Shown here in pieces: positions 13,614 to 61,695 of a DNA stretch of 64,000 nt; within the stretch, counting starts at the first letter, position 1; each line of letters starts with the position of its first letter. The stretch is from Leucoraja erinacea (Eukaryota). The stretch spans positions 18,290,001 through 18,354,000 of the forward strand of contig NC_073407.1 in NCBI RefSeq assembly GCF_028641065.1. Reading direction: 5' to 3'. Below the pieces are notes generated by a model. The model was not told the DNA's origin. It was given only the letters and a program-made list of their open reading frames with translations, and did not search any database. Position numbers and translations under genes: made by a program.

Positions 13614-13642
13614 TGGGTAATGTAGTCCAAGCTACCGGAAGT
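13614..13642 (+). promoter_or_regulatory. C9orf78 promoter elements: ZNF143-like TGGGTAATGTAGT and ETS/GABP site ACCGGAAGT
   Basis: Consensus matches 120-150 bp upstream of the C9orf78 ATG. Confidence 0.6.
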
Positions 13643-13762
13643 ACGTTCGCAGACCGGATATGTCCATCTGCCAGAACCTTCCTCTCCGTTGTTAATGCGC
13701 AACGTAGCTCGGAGTGGAAAGACGGTTGTCACTTGAAGTGAAGAGTGAGAATCGCAGGAGAA

Positions 13763-13848
13763 ATGCCGGCGGGGAAAAGTTACAGGAAGAGGCGAGAGGA
13801 GGAGTCGGAGTCGGACGAAGAAGATGAGCAGAGGGTGGTGGAGGTCAG
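13763..13848 (+). CDS. C9orf78: C9orf78/TLS1 exon 1 (MPAGKSYRKRREEESESDEEDEQRVVEVR)
   Basis: ATG at 13763, GT donor at 13849; acidic N-terminus like human C9orf78; nine exons join into an 876-nt ORF (291 aa). Confidence 0.93.
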
Positions 13849-14013
13849 GTAGGAGCAGATACTCCGCTGGTCAACAGGAAAACAGTCCAGCCCGGGCTTT
13901 GGCTGAACCACTGATTAACGCAGGCAGGCTCCCTAGAATCAAATACACAGGACTAGATGTCAACTTATCGACACCTACAATAGGCCTTGATTTGAAGAAG
14001 GGTCGCGAGCCAA

Positions 14014-14160
14014 NNNNNNNNNNNNNNNNNNNNNNNNNNNNNNNNNNNNNNNNNNNNNNNNNNNNNNNNNNNNNNNNNNNNNNNNNNNNNNNNNNNNNNN
14101 NNNNNNNNNNNNNNNNNNNNNNNNNNNNNNNNNNNNNNNNNNNNNNNNNNNNNNNNNNNN
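14014..14160. other. Assembly gap (147 N) in C9orf78 intron 1
   Basis: Run of N flanked by oppositely oriented pLTR-type repeats. Confidence 0.99.
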
Positions 14161-14476
14161 GCTGGTGTAACTCAGCGGGCCGGGCAGCCTCTTCAGAGTC
14201 AGGGGAATGGGAAACTATATATATAATAGCTGGTGATTATAGAACAAACGAATGAAAGATATACAATGAGGCTAGTAACAGGTCATGTTTTTATCAGTTA
14301 TATTTCTTTTCTTTGCTTTCTCAAGTTTGATGGAGACATGGAGCCTCGGTCAATGATTCTGATTAACATGCAATCTATATAGCTATGCTTTCAAAACATT
14401 ATGTGCAGATCTTGATTTTTATTATTTATAACAACAGTGTTCCGAATCAGTTTTTGTAAATCTTCTTGTTTCCTAG

Positions 14477-17962: not shown

Positions 17963-19085
17963 GTATGTTTGGCCTTACGTGGCACATTTTTGAAATGAAA
18001 AATAGCCTTTCCCCAAAAAACAAGAAACTATAGGTGTTTGTAATTTGAGATGAAAACAGAAAATGTGGGATCATCCTCCACTCTTTGGCTAGTGTTCTTT
18101 ATCCACTGTCTTGCAATTTATTTCAATTATTTATCTGGTTCCTTTTTGTAAATTAATATTCAATTTGCTTTCCCGCTCTTTAGTCAATGAATTCCAAATC
18201 AGAACTTTAAAAATTACTTTAAACAAAAACAAAACAACTTTTGATAGTTACCGTAAATCCTGCCCTCCCAAGTTATTGACGCTTTTCCTGGTGGAAATAC
18301 TTTTATTTTATTCACTACATCAAAACCAGTCATAATTTTACTTGTCTTCCTTTTTGAACTACATCTGCTGCATTGTTCCTCTGCCATATAAAGTCTGTGG
18401 TATCATCCTGGTAAATTTCTATGGCCGGGCATCCCATTTAATGTTAAAAATAAGGAGGACGGATACGTTGTTGCTATATTGATGTTTCTACTATGGGCAT
18501 TGGGGAATGCCAAAAGTAGATGGATCTAATTGCTGTTAAACTTCTAACACAGGACAGTAAGAATCTTAACCTGTCATTGCATACTAAGCACAACACAAAA
18601 TGCTACAGTACCTCAGCGGGTCAGGCAGCTCTGGTGGAGAGAAAGGAGAGATGAGGTTTCAAGTCACGACCCTTCTTCAGAATTATTGTCACGGGGGAGA
18701 AAGCTGGAAAATAGCTTTTGGGGGCAGAACAAAGCCTGGCAAATGATAGGTGGATACAGGGTTTAGGGCTGCGATTGGGTGGAGTAAATGAGTGAAAAGT
18801 CAATAAAAGGGCGTCAGATAAGGAGGAGTGAAATATAAAGACAATATTGGGGGAAGGGGGAAGATGAGGTAGGATAGTTGGAGAAATGATGGGGGTAGGA
18901 CACTGAGAGGGTGAGGGGGAATATTGCTTGAAATTGAAGAATTCAGTGTTGATACCTTTGGGTTGTCAGCTATTCGAGCAGTGTATGATGTGCTGTTGCT
19001 CCAGTTTGTGTTTGGCCTTCCTCTGGTAATGAAGGCAGCCCAGGACAGAAAGGTTGGATATATTGATCCCTTTGCTTCGTCTCAG

Positions 19086-25718: not shown

Positions 25719-26159
25719 TAGATTTCTAGTTTGTTTTAGAAGAAGCAACAAACAGATCCTGATTGACAAAGTGAAATCTGTAGCTAGATTTCAGTGTAGT
25801 AGTGCCGGATATAGTCTGTTCATTGAGAGTAGAACATTTTGCCTTCAAGTAAAGGCTACATCTTTAAAGGATTTAAACTGCCAATTGACAAAACGTTCGT
25901 GCCCACAATGTCAAATCATTGATGAAAACTGTCAGGCCTTAGAGATGTGGTCTGTTTCCATTCACCAACTGTAGAACACGGTGAAGGACAGTGGACACAC
26001 ATTGGGCGGTGGACAAGTACAAAACAAACTAGGTGAAGATGCAGACCAAATGCGTTTGCTCTTGGATAGGTCAGGGGAAAGCAGGAGCCAGACTCCAAGA
26101 ATGAGACTGCAACAGTAATAGCTGCAAGACTATCTCAAGAAGTATTAAAGGTGAAGCAT

Positions 26160-26590
26160 CCAGGACTTCATTAACTTCACCACTAATTTCCATTCTATAC
26201 TCAAATTCACTTGGACCATCTCTGACACCTCGTTCTGTGCACCCCTCTTGAACTATTAACTGTTGCCTGTTATAAACCCCACAACTATCTAGATCACACT
26301 TCTTCCCACCCTACTTCCTGCAAAGACTCTATCCTCCTACTCCCAATTCCTCTGTCTACGCTGCATCTGCGCCCAAGATGAGATTCCATTCCAGGACATC
26401 TGAGATGTCCTCATTCTTTAGGGAACAGGGGTTCCCCACTTCCATCATTGATGAGGCCCTCATACATGTCTCCTCGTTCCCCCTCATCTCTGCTGTTAGT
26501 TCCCGCCTTGTTATAACATGGATAGAGTCCCCCTAGTCCTTGCTTTTCATCCCATCAGCCGTCACACACAACACACAATCTTCCAACATC
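26160..26590 (+). mobile_element. Penelope-like RT C-terminal remnant
   Basis: Degenerate ...LKFTWTISD...SSHPTSCKDSI.YSQFL.LR.IC... ; paralogous to 38940-39605. Confidence 0.7.
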
Positions 26591-28676: not shown

Positions 28677-29581
28677 CTATCCAATTAAACAAAAATACAT
28701 TAGTTTACAAAGATCACATCAGGCAAAGCGTCAAAATCATACAGCCATTCATATCTGAACTTGGGTTTTGTACCATTTCCATTTGCATCGTTTTAAAATT
28801 CTTCATTACCCTAAACACATCACAATCTACGTAATCTTGACCAAACCATAAATCCGTCAGGATCTCTGTAGATCACCAGCTGTGGACCTGCATAATCATT
28901 CCACCATTTGTTCAGCTATCAGCATCAGCAATAAGCATCTTCCAGTTCCTTCCCTTAACATCGGCCTTTAAGATGCTTCATTGACCAATCATTTGGTCAC
29001 CTGTGCTATTACCGTTTCAAACTTTTATTGGATAACAATTTTTATAGAAGTGAAGCCTTCCCAATATTTTACAAGCTTCAAGCTCCTGCTGCACTGAATT
29101 AGCCTTCAACCAAACATTGTGGAAACTTAGCAATAAATGTCTGTGCTCCTGACACTACAAGAAGAAAAGGCAATCCGCCAGTGCAGTAACCTTTGATGGG
29201 AAAACAAATAAAACTGTAGATGCTGAAATCTGAAACAAAAGCAGAGATGCTAGAAGAACTCAAGCGTTATCTGTGGAAAGATAAACCAGTCAACATTTCC
29301 AGTCAGTGATCCTTCCTCAGAACAGAACTTTCAGCACTTTGATTACCCTCAAGTAGTCAATGCTGGAAAGCACATAAATGCAAACTGCAAGCATGTCAGA
29401 ATAGAATTAGATGCATGCAGCTCCCAACATGAGCCTGTCAAACCTGTATAAGGAATGCCATAGATGTGCACTGGTAACTAGAATACTCATGGAAGTGGAA
29501 AAAGATATGAACAGATAAACAAAGGCACATTGTTGAAAAACGTCTAACATAGCCTTCATGAAATTGACAATGGATGTTTAA

Positions 29582-34024: not shown

Positions 34025-36221
34025 CTGGTTATGGAAATAAAAGGTTCAGATTATCACACAAAGAACAAAATTACTTAGAATGCAGAGTTTAACTGTTACA
34101 CACACGTTTCACATTTTTAGTGCATAGCTGAAGGGATGTTAAACATTTGGAGATATTGCCTCTTCATCAGTACATAAAGCGGAGGCACTTTGCTTTCTAA
34201 TGTGGACATCACAGATCCCAAAGCATAAGGAAAGGGGGAATTATCCCTTGTGTCCTGGCCAATGCCTACCCTTAAGCAATGATCGAGTTATGATGCTCTT
34301 TGGTGCACACTTACTCTACACCAATTGGCTGGCATATGAAGCAGGTTTATAATAGAGGCTATACTTCATTGGTTGATGAACCACTTTGAGATAGCCCAAG
34401 GATAATTTTCCAGCGATTCAATGCTTAAAAATGAAAGCACCATTTTAATGTGAAGTGCATTGTACTGAGTACAGTACATTAAAAAAGCAATCAATACCCC
34501 GCCCCATAAGAGTGAAAATGTCTAATTTCTGACCTCGGACTGTTTCTGTACTCAGTTACACATCTGCCAATCCTTAACAACGTCTTAAATTTGCTTCTTT
34601 TCCTACCCTGCAAATGTTTTTGACATTCCTAACGACATAAAGACCGCCTACTTCCATCTTTGTTTCATCATCTGTCCTACTTCATCTAATATCCTTAGAA
34701 AAACCTCATTCATTTACTTGTGTCACTCCAGATTCCAGTCCAGGCAAGTCCTGGCAAGTCTTCTATCCCCATATCTGGAATCTTCAATGCAGGCAGATTC
34801 CTGCTGCTGGGGTTTGACAGGAATCAGTGTTCACCCTTCATGATTTATATTACAAATTAGATTAAGAGACTGTATGAAGCTAAAACAAAATATGCGGGTA
34901 AAGAATAGAACAACATGTTGATTGGTTTAGATGGTTTAGAAGTTTATTGATAATACTGATAGAGGTGGATGTTTCAATGTAAAAAGGAGTTCAAAATCAT
35001 GATAGATATGGACAAATGACATGACTTGGAAGCAGGGGGCAAAGGGAATTCATTCCCTTTGATAGGAGATATAAAAACAAGCATTTTAAACATTGAGATT
35101 GGTAAATTGTGATGTACAGTGTAATCTTGACACACTGGTTCATTTAAATGTGTAAACAAATGTAAATAAGTGAGTACCAGCAATTGGGAAAGTAAATGAT
35201 TTGAACATCTTAATTGCAGAGTTTTTAGTATTAGTTTTAGAGATACAGCATATTTTGGTCCACCAAGTCCATGTTGACCATCAATCACCTGAACACTAAT
35301 TTTATGTTACCCCACTTTTGCATCCTACACTATAGGGGCAATTTACGGAAGCCAATTAACCTACAAACCGGCACGTCTTTCGAATGTGGGAAGAAACCCA
35401 AGCACCCGGAGAAAACCAATGCAGTCGCAGGGTGAACACGCAAACTCCATACAGACAACAACCAGATGGTGTGGAAGTACAATCTCATTTTAGAATGACT
35501 GATAACTAGAACCACCGTCTCAGACAAATAAATGAGGATCACAGCCAGAACGTAGCAATTGGACAGGCGCATGGATTTGCAGGGAATGGAGGGATATGGG
35601 TTACATGCAGGTAGAGATTAATTTTAGCCCAGCATCAATGTTCAGCACCGATATTGTGGGCTGCAGGGCCTGTTCTTGTGCTGTATTGTTCAGATTCAGA
35701 TTCAGATTCAATTTTAATTGTCATTGTCAGTGTACAGTACAGAGACAACGAAATGCATTTACAACGAAATTGTAAATTTCGTGTGTTCTATGTTCTGTGA
35801 GTGTTGGAGGTCAGGAGAGACTAATAAACGTATATCAATTTATGAGAGGCTTCCTGTGGTGTACTGTTTTATCTATTTATTACATTATTATAGAAACAAT
35901 ACTATTTCAATGACCACATTTCACTCTCCATCCATCAAAAGAGACAAATAAAGTTAAGATTAAAAAAACAATTGCTTCTCCCTATTATTTAGGGCCAAGT
36001 TATTACTGGTTTATTGCTGGATTTGTATCCAAATCTGAATTTGCATTGTAATTCCCATCAGCAAATATGTGTTGTGCATTGTACATTGTCACAACTACCC
36101 TGGGGAGAGCAGACGTGTTGCAAGGTGGCCTGTGCAATCTGCATGCAAAAGTCCTGTGGATGCAGTACAAATAAATAGCCGGTGTATGTTAACGTGGCGG
36201 TGAGATGTCACGACCATTTAC

Positions 36222-36414
36222 CTGTCAGGTTGAGTTTCACCCACTCGTCCTCACAACACTCCTGGAACTTGCAGTACAGTTTGGGGAAGGTGGTGAAGAG
36301 GCCGGTCAGAGCGGTGGCCACGCCGACTGCGATGCCCATACTGATGGGCTCCATGGCCGCCACAAAAGGGGTGGACAAGAGCACGAGCAGCACAGCCCGG
36401 ACCATCACCTTCAT
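36222..36414 (-). CDS. tor1: Torsin-1 copy 1, exon 1 (signal peptide, hydrophobic domain, YCKFQECC)
   Basis: ATG at 36414, donor G|GTAAAT; MKVMVRAVLLVLLSTPFVAA-MEPISMGIAVGVATALTGLF. Confidence 0.93.
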
Positions 36415-36782
36415 GTTGTCGGTTTCCTGGCGGCCGCCCCCTAACAGGCGACGAGGCACAAGACCCCGCCTCAACGCAGCGGCCAGCGAGCCCTGACAAC
36501 CCAGCGGAAGAGCATGCGTCGTCACATCCGCCCCCTCTGACCTTTCCCCTTCCCCGCCCGAAACCCTCAGCCAGACATGTTTGTGAGGGGCATCCACACA
36601 GGCAGGAACAATGATCTTATAGCGGAGCAAGATGGTCTGCTCCTACGTAAAACACGTAGTACGGTCATGCGCAGATTCATGGGCGATTATAGGACCCATT
36701 TTAGCAACCAGCCTCCGGCAAAGATCAGATCTTTGTTTCCGCCTCCGCTCTCGTATCTTCACTTTGGTCTTTGACTTTGACC

Positions 36783-37042
36783 ATGCCGTCCATATCTACC
36801 AGTGTTGCCTAGTGTTGCCTACTGCTCTGCGGTGAATTGTTCCAATCGCCAATGTAGGCGACCCGACTTGTCTTTCTTCAGTGTTTAAGAAGGAACTGCA
36901 GATGCTGGAAAATCGAAGGTACACAAAAAAGCTGGAGAAACTCAGCGGGTGCAGCAGCATCTATGGAGCGAAGGAAATAGGCAACGTTTCGGGCTGAAAC
37001 CCTTCTTCAGACTCTCTTCAGGTTCCTCGTTAAGGAGGAAAG
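36783..37042 (+). pseudogene. Disrupted THAP-domain first exon of the P-like transposase
   Basis: Removing a 10-bp tandem duplication (36811-36820) and a repeat insertion (36882-37014, TSD TCTTCAG) gives MPSISTSVAYCSAVNCSNRQCRRPDLSFFRFLVKEER followed by GTAAG; fits the THAP CxAxxCxN...SFFRF pattern. Confidence 0.75.
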
Positions 37043-37836
37043 GTAAGAAAAGACAAATAAATCGCAATAAAAGCGAAAAGATGCCTATGTTCCTTCCACA
37101 GCGTGGGGGGGAGCCTGGCCCGGATCAGCACCAGAGATCTTTGATCAGCACGGCCAAGACACCAGAGTGAAGTTGCGGGGAGGTTTACAATGTTTATTAT
37201 TTAATGTCCCTTCTCTAGTCTGAAATAAAGATCATCATTGGATATAAAAATCAGAAGAAATATAATTGTTTAAGAAGGATCTGCAGATGCTGGAAAATCG
37301 AAGGTACACAAAAAAGCTGGAGAAACTCAGCGGGTGCAGCAGCATCTATGGAGCGAAGGGAAAAGGCAACGTTTCGGGCCGAAACCCTTCTTCAGAAATA
37401 TAATTTCAGAAACCCTTATATTCAGAAATATAATTGTGTGTGTTATATGATTATATACACCTATATCACATTCATGTATGTGTGTTCTTTCCAGCACAAT
37501 CTGGTCAGTTGTATGCTCATGGAATAAAACCATCCTTAAGTTATACATCTTTTGTAAATCTTGCTCAAAACAAATTTAATTTTGTGAAATTCTTCAATTA
37601 GATAACCCCACCATTACAGGCAGATCTCATTCCACTCTCTGGGTATTGGGAAGATCAGACCCCATTTTATTTGTGGAGAAACAACTCCATAGAAAATAAG
37701 CACAAAAACATTCAGTAACATTCCAGGGCTAGAGCAACTGGAATCTTCATATTGCTATTATTTCCCCAAATACTGCAATTGTGAACAGTGTGATTACATT
37801 AGTGTGATTAGATGAATGAATTACAGAGTGCAAGTG

Positions 37837-38284
37837 TAATACAAAATCAACTCAAACACAGCAGATGAGCCATTTAAAAAGAAATGATTTAAAAAACATT
37901 AAAAAAAAAAGAAATTTACCAGAGTCAAAATTTATAAACATTTTATTCTTTAACAAGAATTAACAGAATTATAAACTAACAGAATTATGAATCTAACCCT
38001 ATATCACGCACAAAAACTGTTCCCCCGCAACGTTGATTACCCTGCGAGTCGGGTAGGGTAGGTTCCGGTTAATACAAAATCAACACAAACACAGCTTATG
38101 AGCCATTTAAAAAGAAATGATTTAAAAAACATTAAAAAAGACAATTACCAGTCAAATTTTATTCTTGACAAGAATTAACAGAATTATGAACTAACAGAAT
38201 TATGAATCTAACCCTATATCACACACAAACTGCTCCCCCACAACGTTGATTACACTGCGAGTCGGGTCGGGTAGGTTCCGGTTA
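37837..38284 (+). repeat. Tandem duplication of ~215-230 bp inside the P-like element
   Basis: 37837-38069 and 38070-38284 both run TAATACAAAATCAAC...GGGTAGGTTCCGGTT. Confidence 0.85.
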
Positions 38285-38410
38285 CTAAAATGGGTGGGGA
38301 AAAATGCCCAGGATCCGCTCCGTAACGTACTACACGTCAGCCCATTGCATTTCGCAGAAGTGGCCTATCTTGCTCCGCTATAAGATCTTTGGGCAGGAAC
38401 AAAGATTATA

Positions 38411-38873
38411 GTGATGTTTCACGGCAGTCGGGTCACAACCCGTGCTGTTGCTACGCTACGCCAAGTGGAGTACACGCGATGAACTGCAGGTAAGCACTTA
38501 CCATTGTTTCCAGCGTAGCGGGCCCGTTAAAACCCGCCGAAATTGTCAATTTTTGCGCTGTAAATAATTATGGAAATCGGGATAAGCGTGAGAGACATTT
38601 AGCCTACTTCAGAATTCCAAAAGTGAGGAGGAATGATGGTAGATAGAAGCGAGAGCTGAAGGGACAACAACAGCCAGAGTGTCTCACGCTTACCCCGACT
38701 TCCACAATTTTTTACAGCGCAAAAATTCAACATTTTGGCGGTTTTTAACAGGTAGGAAAGTACGCGTTTCTTGCATTAATAACATATACCGGAAGTTACT
38801 GATGTCCTCCAGATGGATTGAGCGACTCCGTGCGTCAAGCCCTATGACCCAGTGACCTTACGTGCACGCCCCC
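38411..38873. mobile_element. Foldback MITE (internally deleted relative of 56145-57160) inserted at TATA
   Basis: Shares CACGGCAGTCGGGTCAC start and GACCCAGTG...CGTGCA end with 56145-57160; TATA on both sides. Confidence 0.8.
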
Positions 38874-38939
38874 TATAGAGCAGAGCCTGCAATAGTAAGA
38901 GATTTGCAAGACTATCTCAAGAAGTATTAAAGGTGAAGT

Positions 38940-39605
38940 ATCCAGGACTTAGTTAACTTCACCACCAATTCCATCCTATACTCAAATTCACTTGGACCAT
39001 CTCTGACACCTTGTTCTGCGCCCCTCTCTTGATCTCATCGGCTCCATCACAGGAGATATACTACTGACTGATGTCTGTTATAAACCAACTGACTCCCACA
39101 ACTATCCAGACTACACTTCTTCCCACCCTACTTCCTGCAAAAACTCTATCCCCCTACTCCCAATTCCTCTACGCTGCATCTGCGCCCAAGATGAGGTATT
39201 CCATTCTAGGACATCTGAGATGTCCTCATTCTTTGGGGAACGGGGGTTCCCCACTTCCATCATTGATGAGGCCCTCACACATGTCTCCTCGTTCCCCCTC
39301 AGCTGCGCTATTAGTTCCCGCCTAGTCACAACAGGGACAGAGTCCCCCTAGTCCTTTCCTTTCACCCCATCAGCTGTTGCACACAACACACAATCTTCCA
39401 ACATTTTTGCCACCTCCAACGGAACCACCACTAGTCACATCTTCCCTTTTCCCCTTCCGCAGAGAACCTTTCCTCCGCAACTCCCTAGTTAAATCATCCC
39501 TTCCCACCGAAACCACCCTCTCCCCAGGTACCTTCTCCTGCAACCGCAGGAGATGCAACACCTGTCCATATACCTCCTCCCTCAACTCTGTCCAGGGACC
39601 CTGAT
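38940..39605 (+). mobile_element. Penelope-like remnant (RT thumb to Cys-rich linker)
   Basis: PGTFSCNRRRCNTCPY motif of the kind preceding the GIY-YIG endonuclease; paralog of 26160-26590. Confidence 0.75.
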
Positions 39606-39880
39606 AGTCATAGTCTTAGCGATAGTGAAAACAGGCCCCTCGGCCTAACTCGCTCACAGCAGCCAACAATGTCCCAGCTACACTAGTCCCACTTGCCTGC
39701 GTTTGGCCCATATCCCTCCAAACCTGTCCTATCCATGAACCTGTCTAATTGTTTCTTAAACGATGGGATAATCCCAACCTCAATGACCTCTGGCAGCTTG
39801 TTCCATACACCCACCACCCTTTGTGTGAAAAATTTACCATTCGGATTCCTATTAAATCTTTTCCCGTAGGTGAAGGGGTA

Positions 39881-40602
39881 CAGTGCCCACCATAATGTTT
39901 GGGACAAAGACCCATGTTATTTATTTGCCTCTGTACTCCCCAATTTGAGATTTGTAATAGAAAAACATCACATGTGGTTAAAGTGCACATTGTCAAATTT
40001 TATTAAAAGCCATTTTTATACATTTTGGTTTCACCATGTAGAAATTCCAATTTGTAATTGCTCAGGTGTGTTTAATTGCCTCCTTAATGCAGGTATAAGA
40101 GAGCTCTCAGCACCTAATCTTTCCTCCAGTCTATCCATCACCTTTGGAAAATCTTATTTCTATTTATCAACATGAGGACCAAAGTTATGCCAATGAAAGT
40201 CAGATAAGCCATTATGAGACTGAGAAACAAGAATAAAACTGATAGAGACATCAGCCAAACCGTCCGCAGAAGACTTCATGAACAGAAATACAGAGGCTAC
40301 ACTGCAAGATTCAAACCACTGGTTACCCGCAAAAATAGGATGGCCAGGTTACAGTTTCCCAAGAAGTACTTAATAGAGCAACCACAGCTCTGGAAAAAGG
40401 TCTTGTGGACAGATGAGACAAAGATTAACTTATATTAGAGTGATGGCAAGAGCAAAGTATGTGAAGGAACTGCCCAAGATCCAAAGCATACCACCTCATC
40501 TCTGAAACGCGGTGGTGGGAGTGTTATGATCTGGGCATGTATGGCTGCTGAAGGTACTGGCTAGCTTATCTTCATTGATGATACAACTGATGATGGTAGT
40601 AG
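39881..40602 (+). mobile_element. Tc1 5' half (copy B) up to the LTR insertion site
   Basis: TA|CAGTGCCC left TIR; ORF TVRRRLHEQKYRG...WKKVLWTDETKINLY. Confidence 0.88.
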
Positions 40603-41300
40603 TGTAGCGGCCCCTGGTGGCGGCCTTGTTAATATCGAACCCTCGCGATTGACTGCGCAGTCACATGAGCGCGGGAGTTTCATCGCAGGTTCATTCTAGC
40701 GCCACGCGAATAGAATACACATCGTTAAAATTTTGCCGTCTATCTCGACTTGGGTGACTACTTTGTTTGCATTTCAAAAGAAAGAATTTTTGCACACCCT
40801 AAGTCTCGACTCGCCAAACTGGTGACCCTGTTAGTCCGAATGGATTTTGGGCATTTGACATGCAAGCCGCCGCCATCCCCGACGCCCAGCAAAAACGTTG
40901 TGGGTCTGAAGATGCCCATGTCGAAAGCACTGTAGTTGCACTCCGGAGCCTGCAGCTGACGGCTGAAAAAGGTCAACGGCTGCCAGCGGCCATCAACGAG
41001 CTGCTCCAGGTCACCACCTATAGCAGCATCCGAGGCGTATATGGTGAGTGCGGTAGGGGCGGAAGCACGCGGGTGCCCCAACATGGTAGCGTTTACCAGG
41101 GCTACCTTGGCACCCTCGAAAGAGGCGTCCGCCTCCTCGGACCACACGAGGTTCCGCGTTTTACCCGCCAGCCACCGGAACAGGAGGCTCATGATGTCAG
41201 CATCTGCCGGCACGAAACGGCGATAAAAATTCACCATGCCGATAATCTCCTGTAGCCCCTTCACGGAGAGCGGCCGGGAGAACTTCCGGATAGTCTCGAC
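40603..41300. mobile_element. Gypsy 5' LTR (40603-40817), PBS and an inverted RT-connection/RNase H fragment
   Basis: PBS TGGTGACCC at 40820; minus-strand ORF GMVNFYRRFVP...YASDAAIGGDLEQ...WQPLTFFSRQL...YSAFD. Confidence 0.85.
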
Positions 41301-41304
41301 CTGG

Positions 41305-42794
41305 CAAGAGAATATTTTTGTTTAGCATCTGTTTTGCAGCATTATTTTTCCTTTTGGATAGGATGACCCCTTTAAACTGAAGACGGGAGGTATGATTGAT
41401 ATGAAGATCCTGAAGGACCGAAAGCGAGAAAAGTGAGGAATCGAAAAAGCCATTTATTTGTTCATTTCATTTTTATACACAATAATATAGCCCAGCCGTC
41501 AGCCTTTCAGCCCGTGCTCCTTCAACATGGTGTTTTAAAATAAAGCTATACTTGAGGCCCAAATAAAGCCTGTTGCAGCTTTTAGACTAAATAGCAATCA
41601 TGTAACTATATGCTTTGTCATACCCACCAGTATGGTTATGCTGTTTCTGTGGTATAGAAGAATATGATGTAGCTTTACTGTTTTTATTTTCCATTCATTC
41701 ACCCAAATGACAAAAATGCAAAGTACATAAAACAGAAGTTTTGTTCATTTAAGATGTGTCTGAAAAATGAACGAACTACATGGACTAAAACTCCTATAAA
41801 CTGCTATCTGCATGTTTGGAAATTATTATAGCCTAGAATTTAACTCACCTGATTGTGTTTGCTGTACACCCTTTATACTGGCCAGGGTCCCATTTTGACA
41901 CACTCCATTCAAACTTGCCTGCTTCATTAGAAAAATTATTATTTTACAGTGGCAAGCTTTTTCTTGTAATGAAGGTGAATTAGAGAAATGTTGATGTACT
42001 AATAGGAGCAATACCCAACCGTCAAAAAAAATGTGCCAGTTCTGCACCACAGTGCCGAAGGTGCTGAATTATCGGAGTTTACTGTAATGTGAAGGGCAGA
42101 AGGCAGTGAAGTACAACTCGTGCCTCTTGTGCCACCTGGCAAGCTGGTGTGAGGTGCCTTAGTATAATTTAGACTTGACGCCTCTTTTCTCTCCTACCCC
42201 TTCCCCACCACATCTATCCTTATACCTCCATTCATAGAACAGTACCGCATGGGAACAGACCTTTCAGTCCAGGTCGAACATGACACCAAGTTAAAGTGAT
42301 CTCTCTCTTGCCTACATCTGATTCATATCTTGCCATACCCTGCATATCCATATGTCTATCCAAAAGCCTCTTAAATGCTATTATTGTATCTACCTGCACC
42401 ACAACCCTGGCAGTGCATTCCAGGCACCCACCAATATGGGGAAAAGCAACTTGTCCTGCACATCTCTCTTAACTTCTGCTCCCCTCACCTTAAACCTACA
42501 ATCTGTCTTTGACATTTTCACCCTGGCGGGAAAAGGACTCCATCTATCTTATCTAGCCCTCCCATAATTTTTTATAACCTCTATCAGGTCTCCCCTCAGC
42601 CTCCAACACTCCAGAGAAAATAATCTTATAGCTACCTCCCTGCCTTTAACCTGTCTGAAAGCACTTGGCCTATTTTCTGCACTCTTCTGCAACTTTGGGA
42701 AAGTGTTAAGAATGAAATGCAATCTATCAGCCCTTGGTATCAGTTGCAGGCATTGTGATGATCATTATAAACTCTCCAATCTTGCAATTGTGCC
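41305..42794 (+). pseudogene. C9orf78: Duplicated C9orf78 fragment (end of intron 3, exon 4 at 41362-41432, part of intron 4)
   Basis: Colinear with ~16250-17747; exon 4 identical 71/71 with splice sites intact; no other C9orf78 exons nearby. Confidence 0.92.
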
Positions 42795-43723
42795 TCCTCA
42801 TCCTCTTGCGCTCAATGGAATTGAGACCCAGCCTACTCAACCTCTCCCTTTTACTCACACCCTCTAATCCTGGCAAAATCCTTGTAAATCTTTTCTGAAG
42901 CTTGACATACCTTTCTTATAACATCCTTTGCAAGCAGAGGTTCACTTGCAACTCCTGACAATATCCTTTCAGGTGTTACTGCATCCACGAGACCATCGTA
43001 AACTCCCACGTTAGTCCGCAGAGGTTCAAACACTTGCAACTCCATTTCCAACCTCAGTCTAATGTATCTGTTGTTCCAGTGGTGTGGACTCAAGTAACTG
43101 CATCCACGAGACCCAACGACTAAACTTGTTGGGCGATTCGTTTTCTTGGATCATCATTATTTTTTGCTCATTGTTCTACGCCTGGACCCTATCTGTTTCT
43201 CCCGGTTGCCAAACACCTTTAATTTCTCCAGAGATGCTGTCTGACCCACTGAGTTACTCCAGCGTTTTTGCCACTACTGACCTTTGAATTGGCCTGGGCA
43301 GAAGCCCCTCCATTGGTGCTTGAAATGCAAATTGGAGTTCACCTTTACAACAGTAAAATCATTCATATTTCGCTGGGGCAGAGATTAAGACAACGTTTGT
43401 GGTATACACTTTTCTCTATCTACAAGTAACCCTTGCATCCCCCCTGCTCTTCATCCCTTCCCCACCATTTATTAAGTCGCTGACTTTAGTGTCGTAAAGT
43501 CGTATAAATAATATTATATATATTCAACAATTTTGTCTTTTTGTCATAACTGTAATTTAAATAGGAACGTTTATTTTCACCTATCTCACAGACCTCAAAA
43601 CTAAAATGACGCCAAATATTATTGTTATTACATTTAACACCATGAATTGATTTATTAGAAACCTACAAATGGGCGACAACCCAAATCTTCTCTTTAATGA
43701 GAATGATGTTCACGATTTTTTTG

Positions 43724-45890
43724 CCCTCCATAATGTTTGGGACACAATGAGACCCAAAGGTTAATGGAATGATGTTCACTTTGTTGCCCTCCATAATGTT
43801 TGGGACAAAGACCCATAGGTTATTTATTTGCCTCTGTACTCCACAATTTGAGATTTGTAATAGAAAAAACATCACATGCGCTTAAAGTGCACATCGTCAA
43901 ATTTTATTAAAAGCCATTTTTATACATTTTGGTTTCGCCATGTAGAGATTACAGCTGTGTTTATCCATAGTCCCCCCCCCCCCCCCCCCCCCCCCCACCC
44001 ATTTCAGGGCACCATAATGTTTGGGACACATGGCTTCACAGGTGTTTGTAATTGCTCAGGTGTGTGCTTAATTGCCTCCTTCATGCAGGTATAAGAGAGC
44101 TTCAGCACCTAATCTTTCCTCCGGTCTTTCCATCACCTCTGGAAAATGTTATTGCTGTTTATCAACATGAGGACCAAAGTTGTGCCAATGAAAGTCAAAG
44201 AAGCCATTATGAGAAACATTATGAGACTGAGAAACAAGAAATACAACTGTTAGAGACATCAGCCAAACCGTCCGCAGAAGACTTCATGAACAGAAATACA
44301 GAGGCTACACCGCAAGTTGCAAACCACTGGTTAGCCGCAAAAATAGGATGGCCAGGTTACAGTTTGCCAAGAAATACTTAATAGAGCAACCACAGTTCTG
44401 GAAAAAGGTCTTGTGGACAGATGAGACAAAGATTAACTTATATCAGACTGATGGCAAGAGCAAAGTATGAGGAGGAACTGCCCAAGATCCAAAGCATACC
44501 ACCTCATCTGTGAACCACGGTGGTGGGGAGTGTTATGGCCTGGGCATGTATGGCTGCTGAAGGTACTGGCTCACTTATCTTCACTGGTGATTACAACTAA
44601 TGGTAGTAGTGTAGCGGCCCCTAGTGGTGGCCTTGTTACTATCGAACCCTCGCGATTGGCTGGCACGGTCACATGAGCGAGGGAGCTTCTTTGCGGATTT
44701 TTTTTGTAACCGTTCATTCTAGCGCCACGGGAATAGAATACACATCGTTAAAATTTGGCTGTCTAACTCGACTCGGGTGACTACTTTGTTTGCGTTTCAA
44801 AATAAAGAATTTTTGCACACCTTAACGTCTCGACTCGTCAAAGTAGAATAATAAATTCTGAAGTGTATCGACATAACCTGTCTGCTCAAGTTCAAACAAA
44901 TGTCTCAAAACTCATTGGCCGGCGGTTCATTCTACAGCAAGACAATGATCCCAAACGTACATATTATCTAAATGGTGGCCGATTGGGAAAGGGGGAGATG
45001 CAGCGAGACCTGGGTGTCATGGTACACCAGTCATTGAAGGTAGGCATGCAGGTGCAGCAGGCAGTAAAGAAAGCGAATGGTATGTTAGCTTTCATTGCAA
45101 AAGGATTTGAGTATAGGAGCAGAGAGGTTCTACTGCAGTTGTACAGGGTCTTGGTGAGACCACACCTGGAGTATTGCGTACAGTTTTGGTCTCCAAATCT
45201 GAGGAAGGACATTATTGCCATAGAGGGAGTGCAGAGACGGTTCACCAGACTGATTCCTGGGATGTCAGGACTGTCTTATGAAGAAAGACTGGATAGACTT
45301 GGTTTATACTCTCTAGAATTTAGAAGATTGAGAGGGGATCTTATAGAAACTTACAAAATTCTTAAGGGGTTGGACAGGCTAGATGCAGGAAGATTGTTCC
45401 CAATGTTAGGGAAGTCCAGGACAAGGGGTCACAGCTTAAGGATAAAGGGGAAATCCTTTAAAACCGAGATGAGAAGAACTTTTTTCACGCAGAGAGTGGT
45501 GAATCTCTGGAACTCTCTGCCACAGAGGGTAGTTGAGGCCAGTTCATTGGCTATATTTAAGAGGGAGTTAGATGTGGCCCTTGTGGCTAAGGGGATCAGG
45601 GGGTATGGAGAGAAGGCAGGTACGGGATACTGAGTTGGATGATCAGCCATGATCATATTGAATGGCGGTGCAGGCTCGAAGGGCCGAATGGCCTACTCCT
45701 GCACCTAATTTCTATGTTTCTATACTGCTAAAGCAACAAAGGAGTTTTTCACAGCTAAAAATTCTTGAGTGGCCAAGTCAATCACCCGATCTGAACCCAA
45801 TTGAGCATGACTTTTATATGCTGAAGAGAAAGCTGAAGTGCACTTGTTCCCAGAACAAGGATAAGCTAAAGATGGCTCCAATACAGGCCT
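43724..45890 (+). mobile_element. Tc1 (copy C) with nested solo LTR (44610-44841) and nested CR1 LINE
   Basis: Left TIR with duplicated tip, transposase fragments including FILQQDNDPK and WPSQSPDLNPIE; solo LTR with AGTAG TSD. Confidence 0.88.
44961..45722 (+). mobile_element. 5'-truncated CR1-clade LINE (ORF2 C-terminus and 3' UTR)
   Basis: Uninterrupted frame RDLGVMVH...LVRPHLEYCVQFWSP...RTRGHSLRI...FFTQRVVNLWNSLP; CTATGTTTCTA tail; splits the Tc1 sequence CCCAAAC|ATACTGCT. Confidence 0.92.
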
Positions 45891-46050
45891 TATACAGGTT
45901 TGACAGGCTCATGTTGGGAGCTGCATGCATCTAATTCTATTCTGACATGCTTGCTGTTTGCATTTATGTGCTTTTTATTTGATTTGATTTTTTTTTTTTA
46001 ATTGTCCAGTGTCGAAAAGCAAAATATATTCAATTAAAAACACACACATT

Positions 46051-48631: not shown

Positions 48632-49816
48632 CAGCCATTCATATCTGAGCTCCGGTTATGTACCAATTCAATTTGCATGGTTTTAAAATTCTTCATTGCA
48701 CTAAACACATCACAATCTACGTAGTCTTGACCAAACCATAAATCCGTCAGGATCTCTAAAGATCATCAGCTCTGGTCTTGCATAATCAATCCACCATTTG
48801 TTCAGCTACCAGCATCCTCTAGTTCCTTCCCTTAACCTCTGCCTTTAAGATGCTTCATTGACCAATCATTTGGTCACCTGTGCTATTACCTGTGCTATTA
48901 CCACGGAATTAGCCTTCAACCAAACCTTGTTGAAACTTAGCAATAAATGTCTGTGCTCCTGAGACTAGAAGAAGAAAAGGCAATCCGCCAGTGCAGTTAC
49001 CTTAGATGGAAAACAAATACATCTGTAGATGTTGAAATCTGAAGCAGAGATGCTAGTAGAACTCAAGCACTATCTGTGGAAAGATAAATCAGTCAACATT
49101 TCCAGTCAGTGATCCTTCCTCAGAAGAACTTTCAGCACTTTGATTACCCTCAAGTAGTCAATACTGGAAAGCACATAAATGCAAACAGCAAGCATGTCAG
49201 AATAGAATTAGATGCATGCAGCTCCCAACATGAGCCTGTCAAACCTGTATAAGGAATGCCATAGATGTGCACTGGTAACTAGAATACTCATGGAAGTGGA
49301 AAAAGATATGAACAGATAAACAAAGGCACAATGTCCAAAAACGTCTAACATAGCCTTCATGAAATTGACAAGGATGTTTAGTTTAGTTTAGAGATACAGC
49401 ATGGAAACAGTCCTTTCGGCCCAGCCAGTCCACGTCGACCAACGCTCACCCATACACCAGTTCTATCCCACGCACCAGGGACAATTTACAGAAACCAATT
49501 AACCTACAAACCCGCACCTCTTTGGAATGGGGGAGGAAACCAACACCGTCACAGGGAGGATGTACAAACTCCATACACACAGCACCCGTAGTCAGGACCC
49601 AGGTCTCTGGCACTGGACGGCAGCAATTTTACTGCTGCGCCACTGTGCCGCCACAATGGTTGTACAGATTTCCAATTGGTGAGCATATTTTGTTCCAGTG
49701 TTCTTCATTGCACATTCCTCATGTTAAGCAAAAAAAGTATATATTAATCAAATTGTACAAAGAAGATTCCAAGTGCAGCTCATTTCAAACTGCCAAAATT
49801 TAGCATACATACTTAC

Positions 49817-54915: not shown

Positions 54916-56144
54916 GGAGTGAAAATGTCTAAATTCTGACCTCGGACGGTTTCTGTGCTCAGTTACACATCTGCCATTCCTTAACAATGTCTTAAATGTG
55001 CTTCTTTTCTTACCCTGTAAATGTTTTTGACATTCTTAACGACACAAAGACTGCCTACTTCCATCTTTGTTTCATCATCTGTCCTACTTCATCTAATATC
55101 CTTAGGAAAACCTCATTCATTTACTTGTGTCACTCCAGATTCCAGTCCAGGCAAGTCTTCTATCCCCATATCTGGAATCTTCAATGCAGGCAGATTCCTG
55201 CGACTCGGCTGTGACAGGAATCAGTGTTGGCCCATCATAATTTATATTACAAATTAGATTAAGAGACTGTATGAAGCTAAAACAAAATATGTGAGTAAAG
55301 AATAGAACAACATGTTGATTGGTGTAGAGGTTTATCGATAATACTGATAGAGGTGGATGTTTCATGTAAAGATGAGTTCAAAATCATGATAGATATGGCC
55401 AAATTACACGACTTGGAAGCGGGGCGATGAAGATGGGAATTCATTATATCAGATATAAAAACAAACATTTTAAACATTGAGATTGGTAAATAGTGATGTA
55501 CAGTGTAATCTTGACCCGTTGGTTCATGTAAATATGTAAATAAGTGAGTACCAGCAATTGGGAAAGCAAATGATTTGAACGTCAAAGGGCTGAATGGTCT
55601 CCTCCTGCACCTAATCTATCTTAATTGCAGAGTTTTTAGTATTAGCTTTAGAGACACAGCATATTTTGGTCCACCAAGTCCATGTTGACCATCAATCAAT
55701 CACCTGTACACTAGTTCTATGTTACCCCACTTTTGCATCCTACACTACAGGGGCAATTTCCAGAAGCCAATTAACATACAAACCGGCACGTTTTTCGAAT
55801 GTGGGAGGAAACCGAAGCACCCGGAGAAAACTCATGCAGTCGCAGGGAGAACACGAAAACTCCATACAGCCAACAACCACAGGGCGTGGAAGTACAATCT
55901 CAGTTTAGAAATACTGATAACTGGAACCACCATCTCAGGCAAATAAATGCAGATCACAGCCAGAATCTCGCAATTAGACAGGCGCATGGATTTGCAGGAA
56001 TGGAGGGTTATGTGCAGGCAGAGGAGAGTAATTTAACCCAGCATCAATGTTCAGCACCGATATTGTGGGCTTTAGGGCCTGTTCTTGTGCTGTATTGTTC
56101 TATGTTCTGTGAGCATTGGAGGTCAGGAGACCTAATAAAAGTAT

Positions 56145-57160
56145 GGGGAGGTTCCACGGCAGTCGGGTCACGATCCATGACCCGTACTGTTGCTACGCTA
56201 CTCCAAATGGATTACCCGCGATGTACTACAGGTAGGCACTTACCATTGTTTCCAACGTAGCGGGCCCGTTAAAACCCGCAGAAAATGTCAATTTTTGTGC
56301 TGCAAATAATTATTGAAATCAGGGATAAGTGTGTGAGACATTTAGCCCACTTCAGAATTCGAAAAGTGAGGAGAAATGACGTTAGATAGAAGTGAGAGCT
56401 GAAGGGACAACAACAGAGAGCTTGGCGAACATTGGCCGTTTCCTCACTGCATTTGATCAACTAAGGCATTATTTGTGTTTTTTCTTGATTCCATTTGCAT
56501 CTAAAAAGTTTCAGAAGTGATAAATCTGGCTGTGATTTTTTTTAATCGCCCATGGTTCCCAAGTGGGTTTTTACATACAAAATGAAAACGCATCTGAAGA
56601 AAATTTTACAACCAGATTTATCACTTCTGAGAATTTTTAGATACCAAAGGGATCAAGAAAAAGCACAAATAATGTCAAGAAGGGATTCGGCCCAAAATGT
56701 CGCCCATTTCCTTCGCTCCATAGATGCTGCTGCACCCGCTGAGTTTCTCCAGCATTTTTGTGTACCTTCAATCTTCCAGCATCTGCAGTTCCTTCTTGAA
56801 CACAAATAATGCCTTACTGTTGATGAAATGCAGTGAGCAAACGCGATAATTCCCAATATTTTCAATTCCGATATCTGCACGGCCAATGTTTACCAAGCAC
56901 TTTAGGCGTAGCTGCTGTTGTCCCTTCATTTCACTTCACTTTTGGAATTCTAAAGTTGGGTACATGTCTCTCACACTTACCCCGATCCACTATTTTTTTC
57001 AGCGCAAAAATTCAACATTTTGGCGGTTTTTAACAGGTAGGAAAGTATGCGTTTCTAGCATTAATAACATATACCAGAAGTGACGGATGTCCTCCAGATG
57101 GATTGAGTGGCTCCGTGCGTCAAGCCCTATGACCCAGTGCCCTATGACGTGCAACCCTCC
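56145..57160. mobile_element. Foldback MITE with long internal inverted repeats and a nested pLTR-type repeat
   Basis: Imperfect TIR GGGGAGGTTCCACG / CGTGCAACCCTCC; internal arms ~56465-56540 and ~56600-56675 are reverse complements; absent from copy 1 near 35835. Confidence 0.8.
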
Positions 57161-57523
57161 TATATGAGAGGCTTCCTGTGGTGTACTGTTTTATTTATTT
57201 ATTACATTATTATAGAAACAACACTATATCAATGACCACTTTTCACTCTCCACTCATCAAAAGAGACAAATAAAGTTAAGATTAAAGAAATCAATTTCTT
57301 CTCCCTATTATTCAGGGCCAAGTAATTACTGGCTTATTACTGGATTTGTATCCAAATCTGAATTTGCATTGTAATTCCCCACAGCATTGTTCATTGTCAC
57401 AACCTATCTTTGGTCACAACAGAGAAAGCAGACGTGTTGCAAGGTGGCCTGTGGCATGCGGATGCAGCACAAATAAATAGCCGGTGTATGTTAACGTGGC
57501 AGTGAGATGTCACGACCATTTAC

Positions 57524-57689
57524 CTGTCAGGTTGAGTTTCACGCACTCGTCATCACAACACTCCTGGAACTTGCAGAACAGTTTGGGGAAGAGGCCGGTA
57601 AAAAAAGTGCCCATACTGATGGACTCCACGACCGCCAGAAAAGGGGTGGACAAGAGCACGAGCAGCACAGCCCGGACCATCACCTTCAT
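57524..57689 (-). CDS. tor1: Torsin-1 copy 2, exon 1 (signal peptide, shortened hydrophobic domain)
   Basis: ATG at 57689, donor intact; 166 nt versus 193 nt in copy 1 (27 nt lost in frame). Confidence 0.88.
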
Positions 57690-58892
57690 GTTGTCGGTTT
57701 CCTGGCGGCCGCCCCCTAACAGGCGACGAGGCACAAGACCCCGCCTCAACGCAGCGGCCAGCGAGCCCTGACAACCCAGCGGAAGAGCAGGCAGCGTCAC
57801 ATCCGCCCCTCTGACCTTCCTCCCCCCCAACCCTCAGACAGACATGTTTGTGAGGGGCATCCACACAGGCAGGAATATGGTGCTGACAACAGTCAACTTG
57901 TCCCTCACACTCACTATCACTCTTTGTCTCATTTTCTGGAGAGTTGGAACTGTTCAGTAAATCCAGCAGCATTTGTGACGAGAAGGGAAAAAAATGAATA
58001 AGTTTTGGAACGAATACAATTAAGATTATAGAACCCCATCTAATCCAATCAACATATTATTCTATTCCCTACTCACCTATTTATTTTTTGTTTCTTTTTA
58101 CGTGAATCTACTAATAATATGACAATTTTCTGGATGAGTAAACTGTTATCTTCGATCTTTTCCCCATAGTTTTAGACACATCCATATTTGTCCTCCTTGC
58201 AGAATTTATTTCTGGGGGGAGTCTCCAAATATCCAAATATACAAGGGCGGAAGATTCTTCTAAGTTTTGATTTGTGCTCAGAACCGTAAAGCCTTGACAG
58301 AGCTTGATGATTCAGGCACACGTCAAACGCAGGACAATTTTTTTGGACTTGAAATAAGATCTCTGAAGAAAAAAAATTCAGAGGATGCACAAAGTCCTCA
58401 AAAGCATTTCAATACTCATGTTTTTGGCAAAATCTGTAATTATAAATATAAAACCTGTTATATATTATAAAACACTGGGCAGCGGGTTCAATGATTTTCA
58501 AAAATGAATTGATTTAAGTATTTGATGCAAAAGATGACTGAGGTCTGTGAAGGAAAAGTGTGTGGAAGAAACTGAAAAGAGAGATATTACAAGAGACATC
58601 ATGAACACGATGGAATAAAAACAAGGCGCAACTCGGTAACATGATGGAATACTCCCTACTGGCCTTAAATCAGTGCAGCTCTTAATACCATCCATTACTA
58701 AATACTAATTTCCTCACTACCTGTATGTCCTATCTATACAATGCACAGCACTTGATTTGGCTGCTCCACTAACATTTTGGTGCAGAAGAGGTTTACCACA
58801 ATTTTGCTTGCATTATAGAGGGTATTAGCTATAAGGTTGGACAAACTTGGATTATTTTCTCTGTAATGTAAGAGTTTGAAGGGGAACCTGAC

Positions 58893-59387
58893 GAGGGTTG
58901 CCAACTGTCCCGTATTAGCCGGGACATCCCGTATATTGGGCTAAGTTGGTTTGTCCGCACTTGTCCCGTATTTGACTGCGACTACTCGGGTCAAGGGGAC
59001 TGTTGGTTCGGAGCGCTGCGAATGGCCCCGTCTCACCCGTCCCGATGCAGTGCAGCCCATGGAGTGCAGCAGCAGTGCCTCGCTCGTGGCCCCGTCTGTC
59101 AGCAGCCCGGCCAGCTGTCCGACCTTCGGACCTTCGCTTATTCCTTCTCATGGCCGATCATCGGGTCATGAGTTGGATGGGGTGCAGGATGTTGCATACA
59201 ACATCGCGTGGCCTGGATCAAAATCCGCAACTGGCCCGCCGGCTGGGATTTGTGTGCAGTCCAGCACCCGGGCCAACTCATCATTTACCCAGCCACGGCC
59301 GAGTCAGTCAACGAATTGATATTGGGAATTTGCCCCTAATTTTGACCTTTTGTCCCTTATTTGGGAGTGAGAAAGTTGGCAACCCTA
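58893..59387. mobile_element. Non-autonomous TIR element (AGGGTTGCCAAC termini) nested in an old CR1 fragment
   Basis: AGGGTTGCCAACT ... AGTTGGCAACCCT inverted termini; TGTCCC subterminal repeats. Confidence 0.75.
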
Positions 59388-59629
59388 GACCTAACCGAAG
59401 TATATGAAATTATGAGAGGCATAGATAAGGTGGACAGAACCTTTTTCTCAGGGTGGAAATGTCAAAGACTAGACGAAAGAGCTTTAAGGTGGGAAGATGG
59501 AACTGCTCCTCTGCACCTCAAAGACATGTGGGTAACTGCAGCATTACTTTCCTAATTTTGTATTCAATTACCCTTGTGACAAGGATCAACATATCTGTCT
59601 GTTCTCTACCTGTTCATGTGTCTGTCTAA

Positions 59630-61695
59630 ATGGCTCTTAGACGACAAACCACCTGCACTGGTTTGTCAATGTCCAAGTGTGCCGGCTTAAGATGGTCCAC
59701 AAAGACAGTCTCATGCCTGCCGCCCATGTTGATGACAAAAGTCGTGGTGCCGTGTTGCAGAACCTGGAAAGGTCCCTCATAAGGCCATTGCAGTGGTGTA
59801 TGGTGAGAATCGCTGCGAAGGAAGACGTACCGGCAGTCCTGGAGGGCAGGTGGGACGTACGTGGTGGTGAGTCCATGGCGGGACGTTGAGACTGGAGAGA
59901 GCGCACCCACCATCTCCCAGAGGTGTGTCAGCCTGGTCGTGGGCGGTTCCTGATGTCGACGTGCCGCTGGGATGGTGGGCGCGCTCTCCCCAGTCCCAAC
60001 GTGACGACTACGGCTCGCAGCACACGGAATGGGCTTTCGTAGTCCCGTTGTAATGGCTAGCGGTGAGCATCCCTGCAGATGAAGATATAGGCATACTGTT
60101 GTAACACCGTGGGCACATGCACTGCAGACGAACCATGCCTGGCAGTGGGAACTGGGGCCAACGTGCTCACCCTTTGTCGAAGGCTGGCCAGCAGCGCTGG
60201 AGCTGATGCGACTTGACCGCGGGCGGCAGGCAGAAAATCCCCAGGCACCCGCAGGGCCGAGCCGTACACGAGCTCGGCCGAGGAAGTAGCCAAATCCTCC
60301 TTCGATGCGGTGCATGTACCAAGGAGGACCCAGGGCAGTTGGTCCACCCAGTCTGTGCCCGTAAGTCGAGCTTTCAGCGCCGACGGAACCTTTCGACCAG
60401 CCCATTAGCCTGCGGATGGTAGGCAATCATATGGTGCAACTGGGCACCGTAGAGCTGGGCTAGGGCAGACCACAAGGAAGAGGTGAACTGGGCCCCCCGG
60501 TCGGTGGAAATGTCAGAGGGCACCCCGAACCTGGCGATCCGGTGGTGGATTGGTTCACGAGGTGGCCTGAGGCTATTCCGCTGTCGGACACCTCCGCCAC
60601 GTCTTGTCCCCGGGCACTCGCGGCCAATTGGATAGCTAGGTTTGAGGTTCTGGCAGACATTTCCACCGACTGGGGGGCTCAGTTCACGTTCTCGTTGTGG
60701 GCTTCGCTGGCGAAGATATACGGGGCGCAGTTGCACCACATCTTCGCCTATCACCCTCAGGCAAATGGGCTCGTGGAGCGGTTCCACCGCCACTTGAAAG
60801 CGGTACTGAAGGCACGGCTCACAGGTCCGGACTGCGTCAACCAGTTGCCTCGGGTGCTCTTAGGCATCCGCACGGCCCCCAAAGCGAACTTGGATGCATC
60901 GTCCGCCGAGTTGGTCTGCGGCTCAGTTTTGCGGGTGACCAGGGATTTCCTCCCTGCATGGTTCGAGGGCAGCTGGAAGACATCCAGGCGGTGTTGGCGA
61001 GTCTCCGGCAGCTAGTGGGCGGCCTGGCTCCTGTGCCTACCTCGCGGCATGGGACAGCCCTGGTCCACGTGCCGCCAGAACATAAAAACTGCTTATTTGT
61101 TTTTGTCCGCAGGGATTTGCATCGGTCCGCACTGCATCGTGTCTACGATGGTTCGTTCTGGGTGTTGCGTCGCGACTTTCCAGTTGGACGCTGGGGGCCG
61201 GGAGATCGCCCCCGTCGCTCGGCTTAAACCGGCTCACCTGGATGTCTACAGCCCGGTAGTGGTGGCGTAGCCTCGACCTAGGGGCCGTCTGCTGGCCGAT
61301 CCAGTGGCACCTGCTGTGCTTGTTCTCCCCGCACCTCTTGCTTCTGTTCCTCCCACACCGTCAAGGTCTCCTGGCTTTGTTCCGCCAGCCTCACCTGTAC
61401 CGCCCGTCCCGTCTGTTGTTACCACGCGGGCCAGTCGTCGGGTCCACCCTCCTGCTCAGTTCCGTACCTCGGGTTCTGGGGGTGGGTCCTGTAGCGGCCC
61501 CTTGTGGTGGACTTGTTAATATCGAACCCTCGCGATTGGCTGGTACGGTCACATGAGCGCGGGAGCTTCTTCGATTTTTTCTGTAACCGTTCATTCTAGC
61601 GTCACACGAATAGATTACACATCGTTAAAATTTGGCTGTCTATCTCGACTCGGGTGACTACTTTGTTTGCACACCTTAACATCTCGACTAGCCAA
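59630..61695. mobile_element. Rearranged Gypsy integrase fragments (minus ~59630-60540, plus ~60542-61270), PPT and 3' LTR (61490-61695)
   Basis: rve motifs VDWFTRWPEAIPL, STD(R/W)GAQF, YHPQANGLVER and GPY/F module YEGPF; G-rich PPT before the LTR; AGTAG after the LTR. Confidence 0.88.

Follow-up and report, generated by a model that had tools for sequence, protein, structure and literature searches.

A P-like transposable element upstream of a torsin gene in Leucoraja erinacea and candidate excision scars in the surrounding gene array

Torsin genes and repeats in the window

We analyzed a window of 64,000 nucleotides of the Leucoraja erinacea genome (GCF_028641065.1, contig NC_073407.1, positions 18,290,001 to 18,354,000). 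At about 27000-64000 it carries a tandem array of three torsin paralogs, which are 91-93% alike and all lie on the minus strand. The paralog discussed most below has its exon 1 at 36221-36414 (minus strand), and the gene is named from matches to the Pfam families Torsin and TOR1A_C (PF06309, PF21376) on other exons. The second paralog has, next to its 3' end, an inverted copy of 87 bp (45888-45974) whose identity to the torsin intron sequences at 49168-49254 and 29367-29453 is 99-100%. The window also contains a run of 147 N at 14014-14160.

Several repeats are interspersed with these genes. A palindromic MITE family is present at 38407-38877, with a sister copy at 56142-57164 and a related palindrome at 12934-13225. 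Both of its strands carry THAP-like remnants, its boundaries are of the TATA/AT type, and one torsin paralog retains an empty site for it near 35833-35841. The AT target and the G-rich ends suggest that this family is ISL2EU. The sister copy has an ORF on the minus strand (56771-56935) with a weak match to the Pfam family THAP (E 0.021, below the cut-off), and homolog searches with two ORFs of this MITE family, aimed at THAP references, gave no scoring match. A profile-free search with one of these ORFs returned three repeat-rich proteins, which lack THAP and were dropped. Sequence searches of the PDB, apart from that with the 24-aa exon piece described below, gave four weak and irrelevant matches, and Rfam gave two sub-threshold miRNA matches on the palindromic neighbour.

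A short repeat occurs at 36882-37013, 37267-37396, 56677-56803, and in other places, and its contig depth in related runs is about 1e7. DNA transposons bearing THAP harbour two insertions of this repeat. A longer dispersed repeat is found at 38883-39620 and 26103-26589, with 84% identity between copies. Three of its ORFs had no Pfam match, and it may be Penelope-like. Finally, remnants resembling the RNaseH and integrase of LTR retrotransposons were recognized by eye at 40758-41321 and 59626-61400, the second being inverted at 60226-60957.

Extent and structure of the element

The P-like element spans 36609-38391 (1,783 bp) and starts 195 bp from the torsin ATG at 36414 (minus strand), the distance given by the first-pass annotation of this DNA. 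That annotation had also described terminal inverted repeats (TIRs) of 25 bp matching at 24 of 25 positions and an exact 8-bp target site duplication (TSD), and both stand. The left TIR is at 36609-36633 (plus strand), the right one at 38367-38391 (minus strand), and the TSD, GGCAGGAA, is found at 36601-36608 and 38392-38399. This 8-mer occurs three times on the plus strand of the window and once on the minus strand. The termini of the element are CA..TG, and the length of the TIRs falls within the range of about 13-31 bp of P elements.

Between the TIRs, a candidate pair of subterminal inverted repeats was identified at 36694-36709 (plus strand) and 38280-38295 (minus strand), matching at 15 of 16 positions (E 0.31, which is weak taken alone). 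The element further contains a 17-bp palindrome made of two TIR cores and devoid of a clean TSD (36719-36735), a second copy of the high-copy short repeat (37267-37396, 97% identical to the first), and an internal tandem duplication with a unit of about 233 bp (37837-38290, 86% identity). Its six-frame translation revealed no catalytic domain, two internal ORFs had no Pfam match, and Rfam had no match inside the element. A homolog search with the exon read-through gave no candidate and retrieved no autonomous relative, and scans of metagenome, prokaryote-genome, and viral contigs with the TIR pattern found 0 loci.

A THAP-like first exon and its lesions

The element had been described as carrying a doubly interrupted exon ending at GTAAG, which is what we find. 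The exon lies on the plus strand in three pieces (36783-36809, 36811-36882, and 37017-37042), from an ATG at 36783. Its 5' part (36783-36874) carries a C-x4-C motif at 36823-36840 and is frameshifted by a 10-bp tandem duplication (36801-36821). The second lesion is an interruption of 140 bp (36875-37014), made of the very high-copy short repeat and a 7-bp duplication; the resulting 7-bp direct repeat is at 36875-36881 and 37015-37021. The 3' part of the exon (37015-37047, plus strand) has F-x-x-F and then L where THAP has P, followed by the putative GTAAG donor at 37043. This Leu is one transition from Pro.

By eye, the C-x4-C and the conserved-Pro position 16 residues further on agree with the THAP positions C3, C8, and P23 of the Drosophila buzzatii P transposase (PMC3698922). 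A looser motif, C-x4-C-x-N-x(6-14)-F, occurs four times in the six frames of the window, one of them in this exon. The six-frame translation of the element lacks the second half of THAP, and the unbroken exon piece of 24 aa, searched alone, matched 0 Pfam families and gave 0 PDB hits. The THAP label proposed in the first-pass annotation agrees with the spacing of these residues, but it did not gain a profile match with the unbroken piece. Judged from this spacing, the THAP identity of the exon is plausible. None of the splice joints listed starts from 37042, and the RNA reads of data set X23 fall on parts shared across the family.

Copies of the element in related genomes

Fractions of 0.14-0.47 of the sampled words of the stretch are present in 20 runs, which represent at least four organisms. 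We compared contigs of four runs with positions 36200-37262, which cover the left part of the element. The summed contig depth, which is not a copy number, is 25-118 in the flanking DNA and climbs to 9,796-14,356 and then 81,214-122,365 in the bins that follow. The family boundary at 36609 is the start of 3 of the 24 contig pieces listed (of 148,871). The element is one copy of a multi-copy family in related genomes. At 36612, where the window has T, the related copies have A, as does the right TIR.

The contigs also bear on the lesions of the exon. The 10-bp duplication is left out at a depth of 764 of 1167 in X5 and of 160 of 507 in X6, and a joint from 36874 to 37015, which skips 140 bases, is present in two contigs of X5, three of X6, and one of X15. 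Since copies with neither the duplication nor the insert exist in nature, in two other organisms, the repair of the exon proposed from the window sequence agrees with natural copies. One piece of X15 retains the 10-bp duplication and has otherwise no difference, which suggests the existence of a non-autonomous subfamily bearing the frameshift.

The element by itself is ordinary. P-like elements are already known in vertebrates. A literature search that left Repbase, Dfam, and most subscription papers outside its scope returned no study of P families in chondrichthyans or of P scars arising naturally in a vertebrate, and the family may already be catalogued.

The insertion site and a second element end

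An empty site at 57868-57875 of a torsin paralog had been proposed in the first-pass annotation. The left flank of the element (35841-36608) does align with 57163-57875 (779 aligned bases, 85% identity), and the alignment ends on the TSD 8-mer. But the match is restricted to this flank: the paralog DNA to the right of the site (57876-61500) has no counterpart in 36609-45000 except two short repeat matches. The target region has 61% GC and a CpG observed/expected ratio of 0.66, compared with 41% and 0.43 in the window. A torsin contig of X15, a data set that we guess to be RNA, covers 36220-36481 with one difference and exits the window at the donor of exon 1, bearing in mind that contigs cannot show a transcription start.

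Directly after the right TSD come the start of a TIR at 38400, the palindromic MITE (38407-38877), and the dispersed repeat (38883-39404). Hence, two insertions took place at this target site, and this torsin paralog lacks its native upstream DNA. The second element end, overlooked in the first-pass annotation, is placed head to tail with the element at the same target site (38400-38410, plus strand) and shows seven exact TIR bases before the MITE. These bases (38400-38406) have a chance of 9.4e-5 per position, although the window contains 20 occurrences of the 7-mer where 12 are expected. The end is split by the MITE and resumes at 38878, and the dispersed repeat takes over at about nt 17-20 of the TIR. 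Once the MITE is removed in a script, the likeness to the TIR extends to nt 16-20 with 4 mismatches in 20, a fit that requires 3-4 changes or a gap of 2 nt.

The DNA missing to the right of 38400 might instead mark the breakpoint of the tandem duplication of the torsin array, placed at the element by alternative transposition, with no later deletion. This would account for the fact that the paralogy with the second copy ends exactly at the TSD. However, the segment at 38883-39404 is a copy of the dispersed repeat with 84% identity and junctions unlike those of its sister at 26103-26589, whereas the gene paralogs are 91-93% alike; for the same reasons, 38883 was rejected as the start of a paralogous array unit. 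In addition, the junction carries a short remnant and not a full end. We regard a duplication breakpoint as rather unlikely, and retain a double insertion followed by loss of upstream DNA.

Remnants of terminal inverted repeats

A scan of the window with the first 17 bases of the TIR, allowing at most four mismatches, identified four places: the two ends of the element and two orphans at 12102 and 63414. In 100 block shuffles, the mean number of matches per window at two mismatches or fewer was 0.01. The orphan at 12102-12117 (plus strand) is a left end of 16 exact nt, for which no empty site was found. The orphan at 63414-63430 (minus strand) is a right end of 17 nt, or 20 nt when 3 nt common to the torsin exon are included, and adjoins CCTGAGAC. 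Its 8-mer at 63431 has empty sites in two torsin paralogs, at 29148 (one substitution in the 8-mer) and at 48958. To the left of this orphan, 622 bp of torsin DNA are missing, namely the 5' part of the last exon (about 50 codons), the acceptor, and intron sequence. Having lost the 5' part of the last exon, the third paralog may have become a pseudogene, or it may use another 3' end.

The three one-sided ends (12102, 38400, and 63414) all stop at nt 16-20 of the TIR, and no longer orphan end was found in the window. At two of the orphan junctions, microhomology of 3-4 nt falls on TIR nt 17-20, which a strict overhang of 17 nt would not provide; this calls for some repair synthesis or for another position of the cut.

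The fourth case is two-sided. At 37124-37151 the window reads ATCAGCACCAGAGATCTTTGATCAGCAC, in which a 12-bp TIR remnant with one mismatch (37132-37143) stands between exact 8-bp direct repeats at 37124 and 37144. Including the final G of the remnant extends the repeat to 9 bp. The TIR contains an 8-nt palindrome at nt 3-10, and two long overhangs should therefore anneal there and leave 12 bp between the TSD copies. This form was predicted ahead of the scan for two-sided remnants and recorded after it. When neither overhang exceeds 17 nt, 153 joins with a length of 10 nt or more can be formed. The 12-bp scar is the sole join present, and its microhomology is the longest of all. For it to form, each side must have kept 10 TIR bases or more. 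No such structure was found in 40 shuffles, and the analytic expectation over all joins is 4.5e-4. The second match of a loose two-sided scan (18321-18356) was discarded, as its interior is not derived from the TIR and none of the 153 joins corresponds to it. We treated a 12-mer at 58354 with one mismatch as a chance match.

These remnants, four in a single window, are probably scars of P-type excision, an interpretation that we favour with some reserve. They could also be something else around a P-like element: ends of other families that share the terminal 16-20 bp, chance deletions that end in a TIR, or internal binding motifs that resemble ends. The element does contain two palindromes of TIR cores, one of them lacking a TSD, the sample is n=4 from one window, and the microhomology at the junctions reaches nt 20. 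The scar at 37132 was also not seen as a gap in related copies: no gap of 20 nt is present among the 12 of 13 indel rows and the 15 of 104 joints listed for them. On the other hand, the remnant at 63414 adjoins a torsin exon and the one at 38400 meets the dispersed repeat at 38883, neither of which is element interior, and the exact repeats around the 37132 remnant are those with the expectation of 4.5e-4. We consider such a non-excision origin unlikely, though the least unlikely of the alternatives in this work, and interpret the remnants below as excision scars.

Superfamily of the element

Four points of background are relevant here. CA..TG termini are the rule in the P superfamily, the 17-nt overhang of an excised P element consists of TIR bases, the target duplication of Kolobok is TTAA, and THAP is also found in the hAT-derived THAP12 group (Zaphod-like branch). 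The literature examined held no confirmation of the link between THAP12 and hAT. It is stated in PMC4482050 that ISL2EU transposases carry THAP, that this family is defined by an AT TSD and GG termini, and that the TSDs of hAT range from 5 to 8 bp. Donor ends of the P element after excision in Drosophila have 17-nt 3' overhangs (PMC2895639, PMC10983969), and PMC5873905 and PMC7827188 describe hAT excision via hairpins, leading to flank deletions and palindromic P-nucleotides.

Duplications of 8 bp, as in P elements, are found at 36601/38392 and 37124/37144, and as an 8-mer at 63431 with empty sites in the paralogs. A long staggered cleavage that leaves about 17 nt of TIR is indicated indirectly, by four cases in one window. 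The 8-bp TSD fits hAT as well, but TIR bases adjoin host DNA, whereas a hAT donor site should retain none. The TSD is an 8-mer and not the TTAA of Kolobok. The AT TSD and GG termini of ISL2EU are absent from the element and fit the neighbouring MITE better. This copy lacks the P-type catalytic core, an RNaseH with a GTP-binding insertion, and past exon 1 it has no coding remnant that could show the catalytic and dimerisation domains of hAT.

The first-pass annotation had assigned the element to the P superfamily from the combination of the 8-bp TSD, the CA..TG ends, and THAP. The assignment remains the best reading, and the TIR remnants fit it, but this combination is suggestive and not diagnostic, because THAP also occurs in ISL2EU and, as noted above, in the THAP12 group, and because the unbroken THAP-like piece gave no HMM match. 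Stronger support comes from the TIR remnants beside host DNA, which fit donor ends of P type. The element is likely to be a non-autonomous member of the P superfamily.

The main competitor is a hAT element of the THAP-bearing branch (Zaphod/THAP12-like), with the remnants left by gap repair that was aborted while copying from the sister chromatid. An 8-bp TSD lies within the range of hAT (PMC4482050), no match ties the THAP-like exon to P, and no catalytic domain was seen. Yet hairpin excision gives footprints derived from the flanks and not TIR bases between intact TSDs, and one would not expect aborted repair to end at nt 16-20 in all three cases. We judge a hAT origin very unlikely and keep the P assignment.

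Proposed history of the locus

The account that we propose, and consider likely, is that of a 1,783-bp non-autonomous cut-and-paste member of the P superfamily with the following sequence of insertions and excisions. By analogy with P biology, a THAP-bearing P-type transposase encoded elsewhere would act in trans and bind near the ends, making one cut at the boundary of the element and a second, on the opposite strand, about 17 nt within it, and insertion would take place with a stagger of 8 bp and a preference for promoter DNA. After the torsin duplication, two copies would have inserted head to tail, both at the 8-bp site that lies 195 bp upstream of the ATG of one paralog. According to 10.1101/158386, P tandems arise by double insertion with the TSD between the copies, at a median of 169 bp from the transcription start site. 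The outer copy would then have been excised imprecisely, leaving 16-20 nt of its end with the loss of native upstream DNA, and an unrelated MITE would later have split this remnant. Another copy may have entered the element and left again, its overhangs being joined via the 8-nt palindrome of the TIR into the 12-bp scar. In the third paralog, the last intron would have held a further copy, and the excision of that copy would have come with a deletion of 622 bp, by which the acceptor was lost together with about 50 last-exon codons.

A broader claim is that P donor sites have been fossilised in numbers (four scars in 64 kb) and record the 17-nt cut in a natural non-insect germ line, and that hopping and imprecise excision removed the upstream region of one torsin gene and truncated another. 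We hold this claim in even balance. The 17-nt staggered cut is called atypical in PMC10983969 and cited there for the Drosophila enzyme. If scars across the genome peak at 16-17 nt and at the 12-bp palindrome form, the cut geometry of a vertebrate P family and the repair pathway would become readable from sequence, and the shape of scars would offer a way of classifying non-autonomous elements in which no catalytic domain is left. The locus would also be a natural example of imprecise P-type excision editing a tandem gene array.

Comparison with known systems

The hAT elements (Ac/Ds) share with this one an 8-bp TSD and short TIRs, but their footprints are derived from hairpins and lack transposon ends (PMC5873905). 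Among vertebrates, the zebrafish system Pdre2/zfTHAP9 is P-like and shares with the present element an 8-bp TSD and TIRs; it also has subterminal inverted repeats, of which there is a candidate pair here, and its excision produces flanking deletions and one-ended cuts. Pdre2 has TIRs of 13 bp and about 50 copies (PMC10983969), whereas the TIRs described here have 25 bp and the contig cover in relatives is far deeper. The MITE BuT5 and the P element of the repleta group are another case of a non-autonomous partner that keeps the ends alone, and are also linked to rearrangements, which in BuT5 arose by ectopic recombination. Unlike our element, BuT5 has TIRs of 3 bp, TSDs of 8 or 9 bp, and no coding remnant (PMC3698922).

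There are also parallels with the P element of Drosophila and its internally deleted derivatives. They have in common with the skate element the 8-bp TSD and the CA..TG ends, and their TIRs are of similar length (31 bp versus 25 bp); a subterminal inverted repeat and an N-terminal THAP-like first exon may be shared as well. The sequence of the Drosophila TIR is, as we take it by eye, unrelated to this one beyond the first bases. Shared traits also include insertion near gene starts, head-to-tail double insertion with the TSD between the copies, and remnants of up to about 17 nt with flanking deletions. The skate element differs from Drosophila P in the absence of the catalytic region and in the 8-nt internal palindrome of its TIR, which gives a preferred scar of 12 bp.
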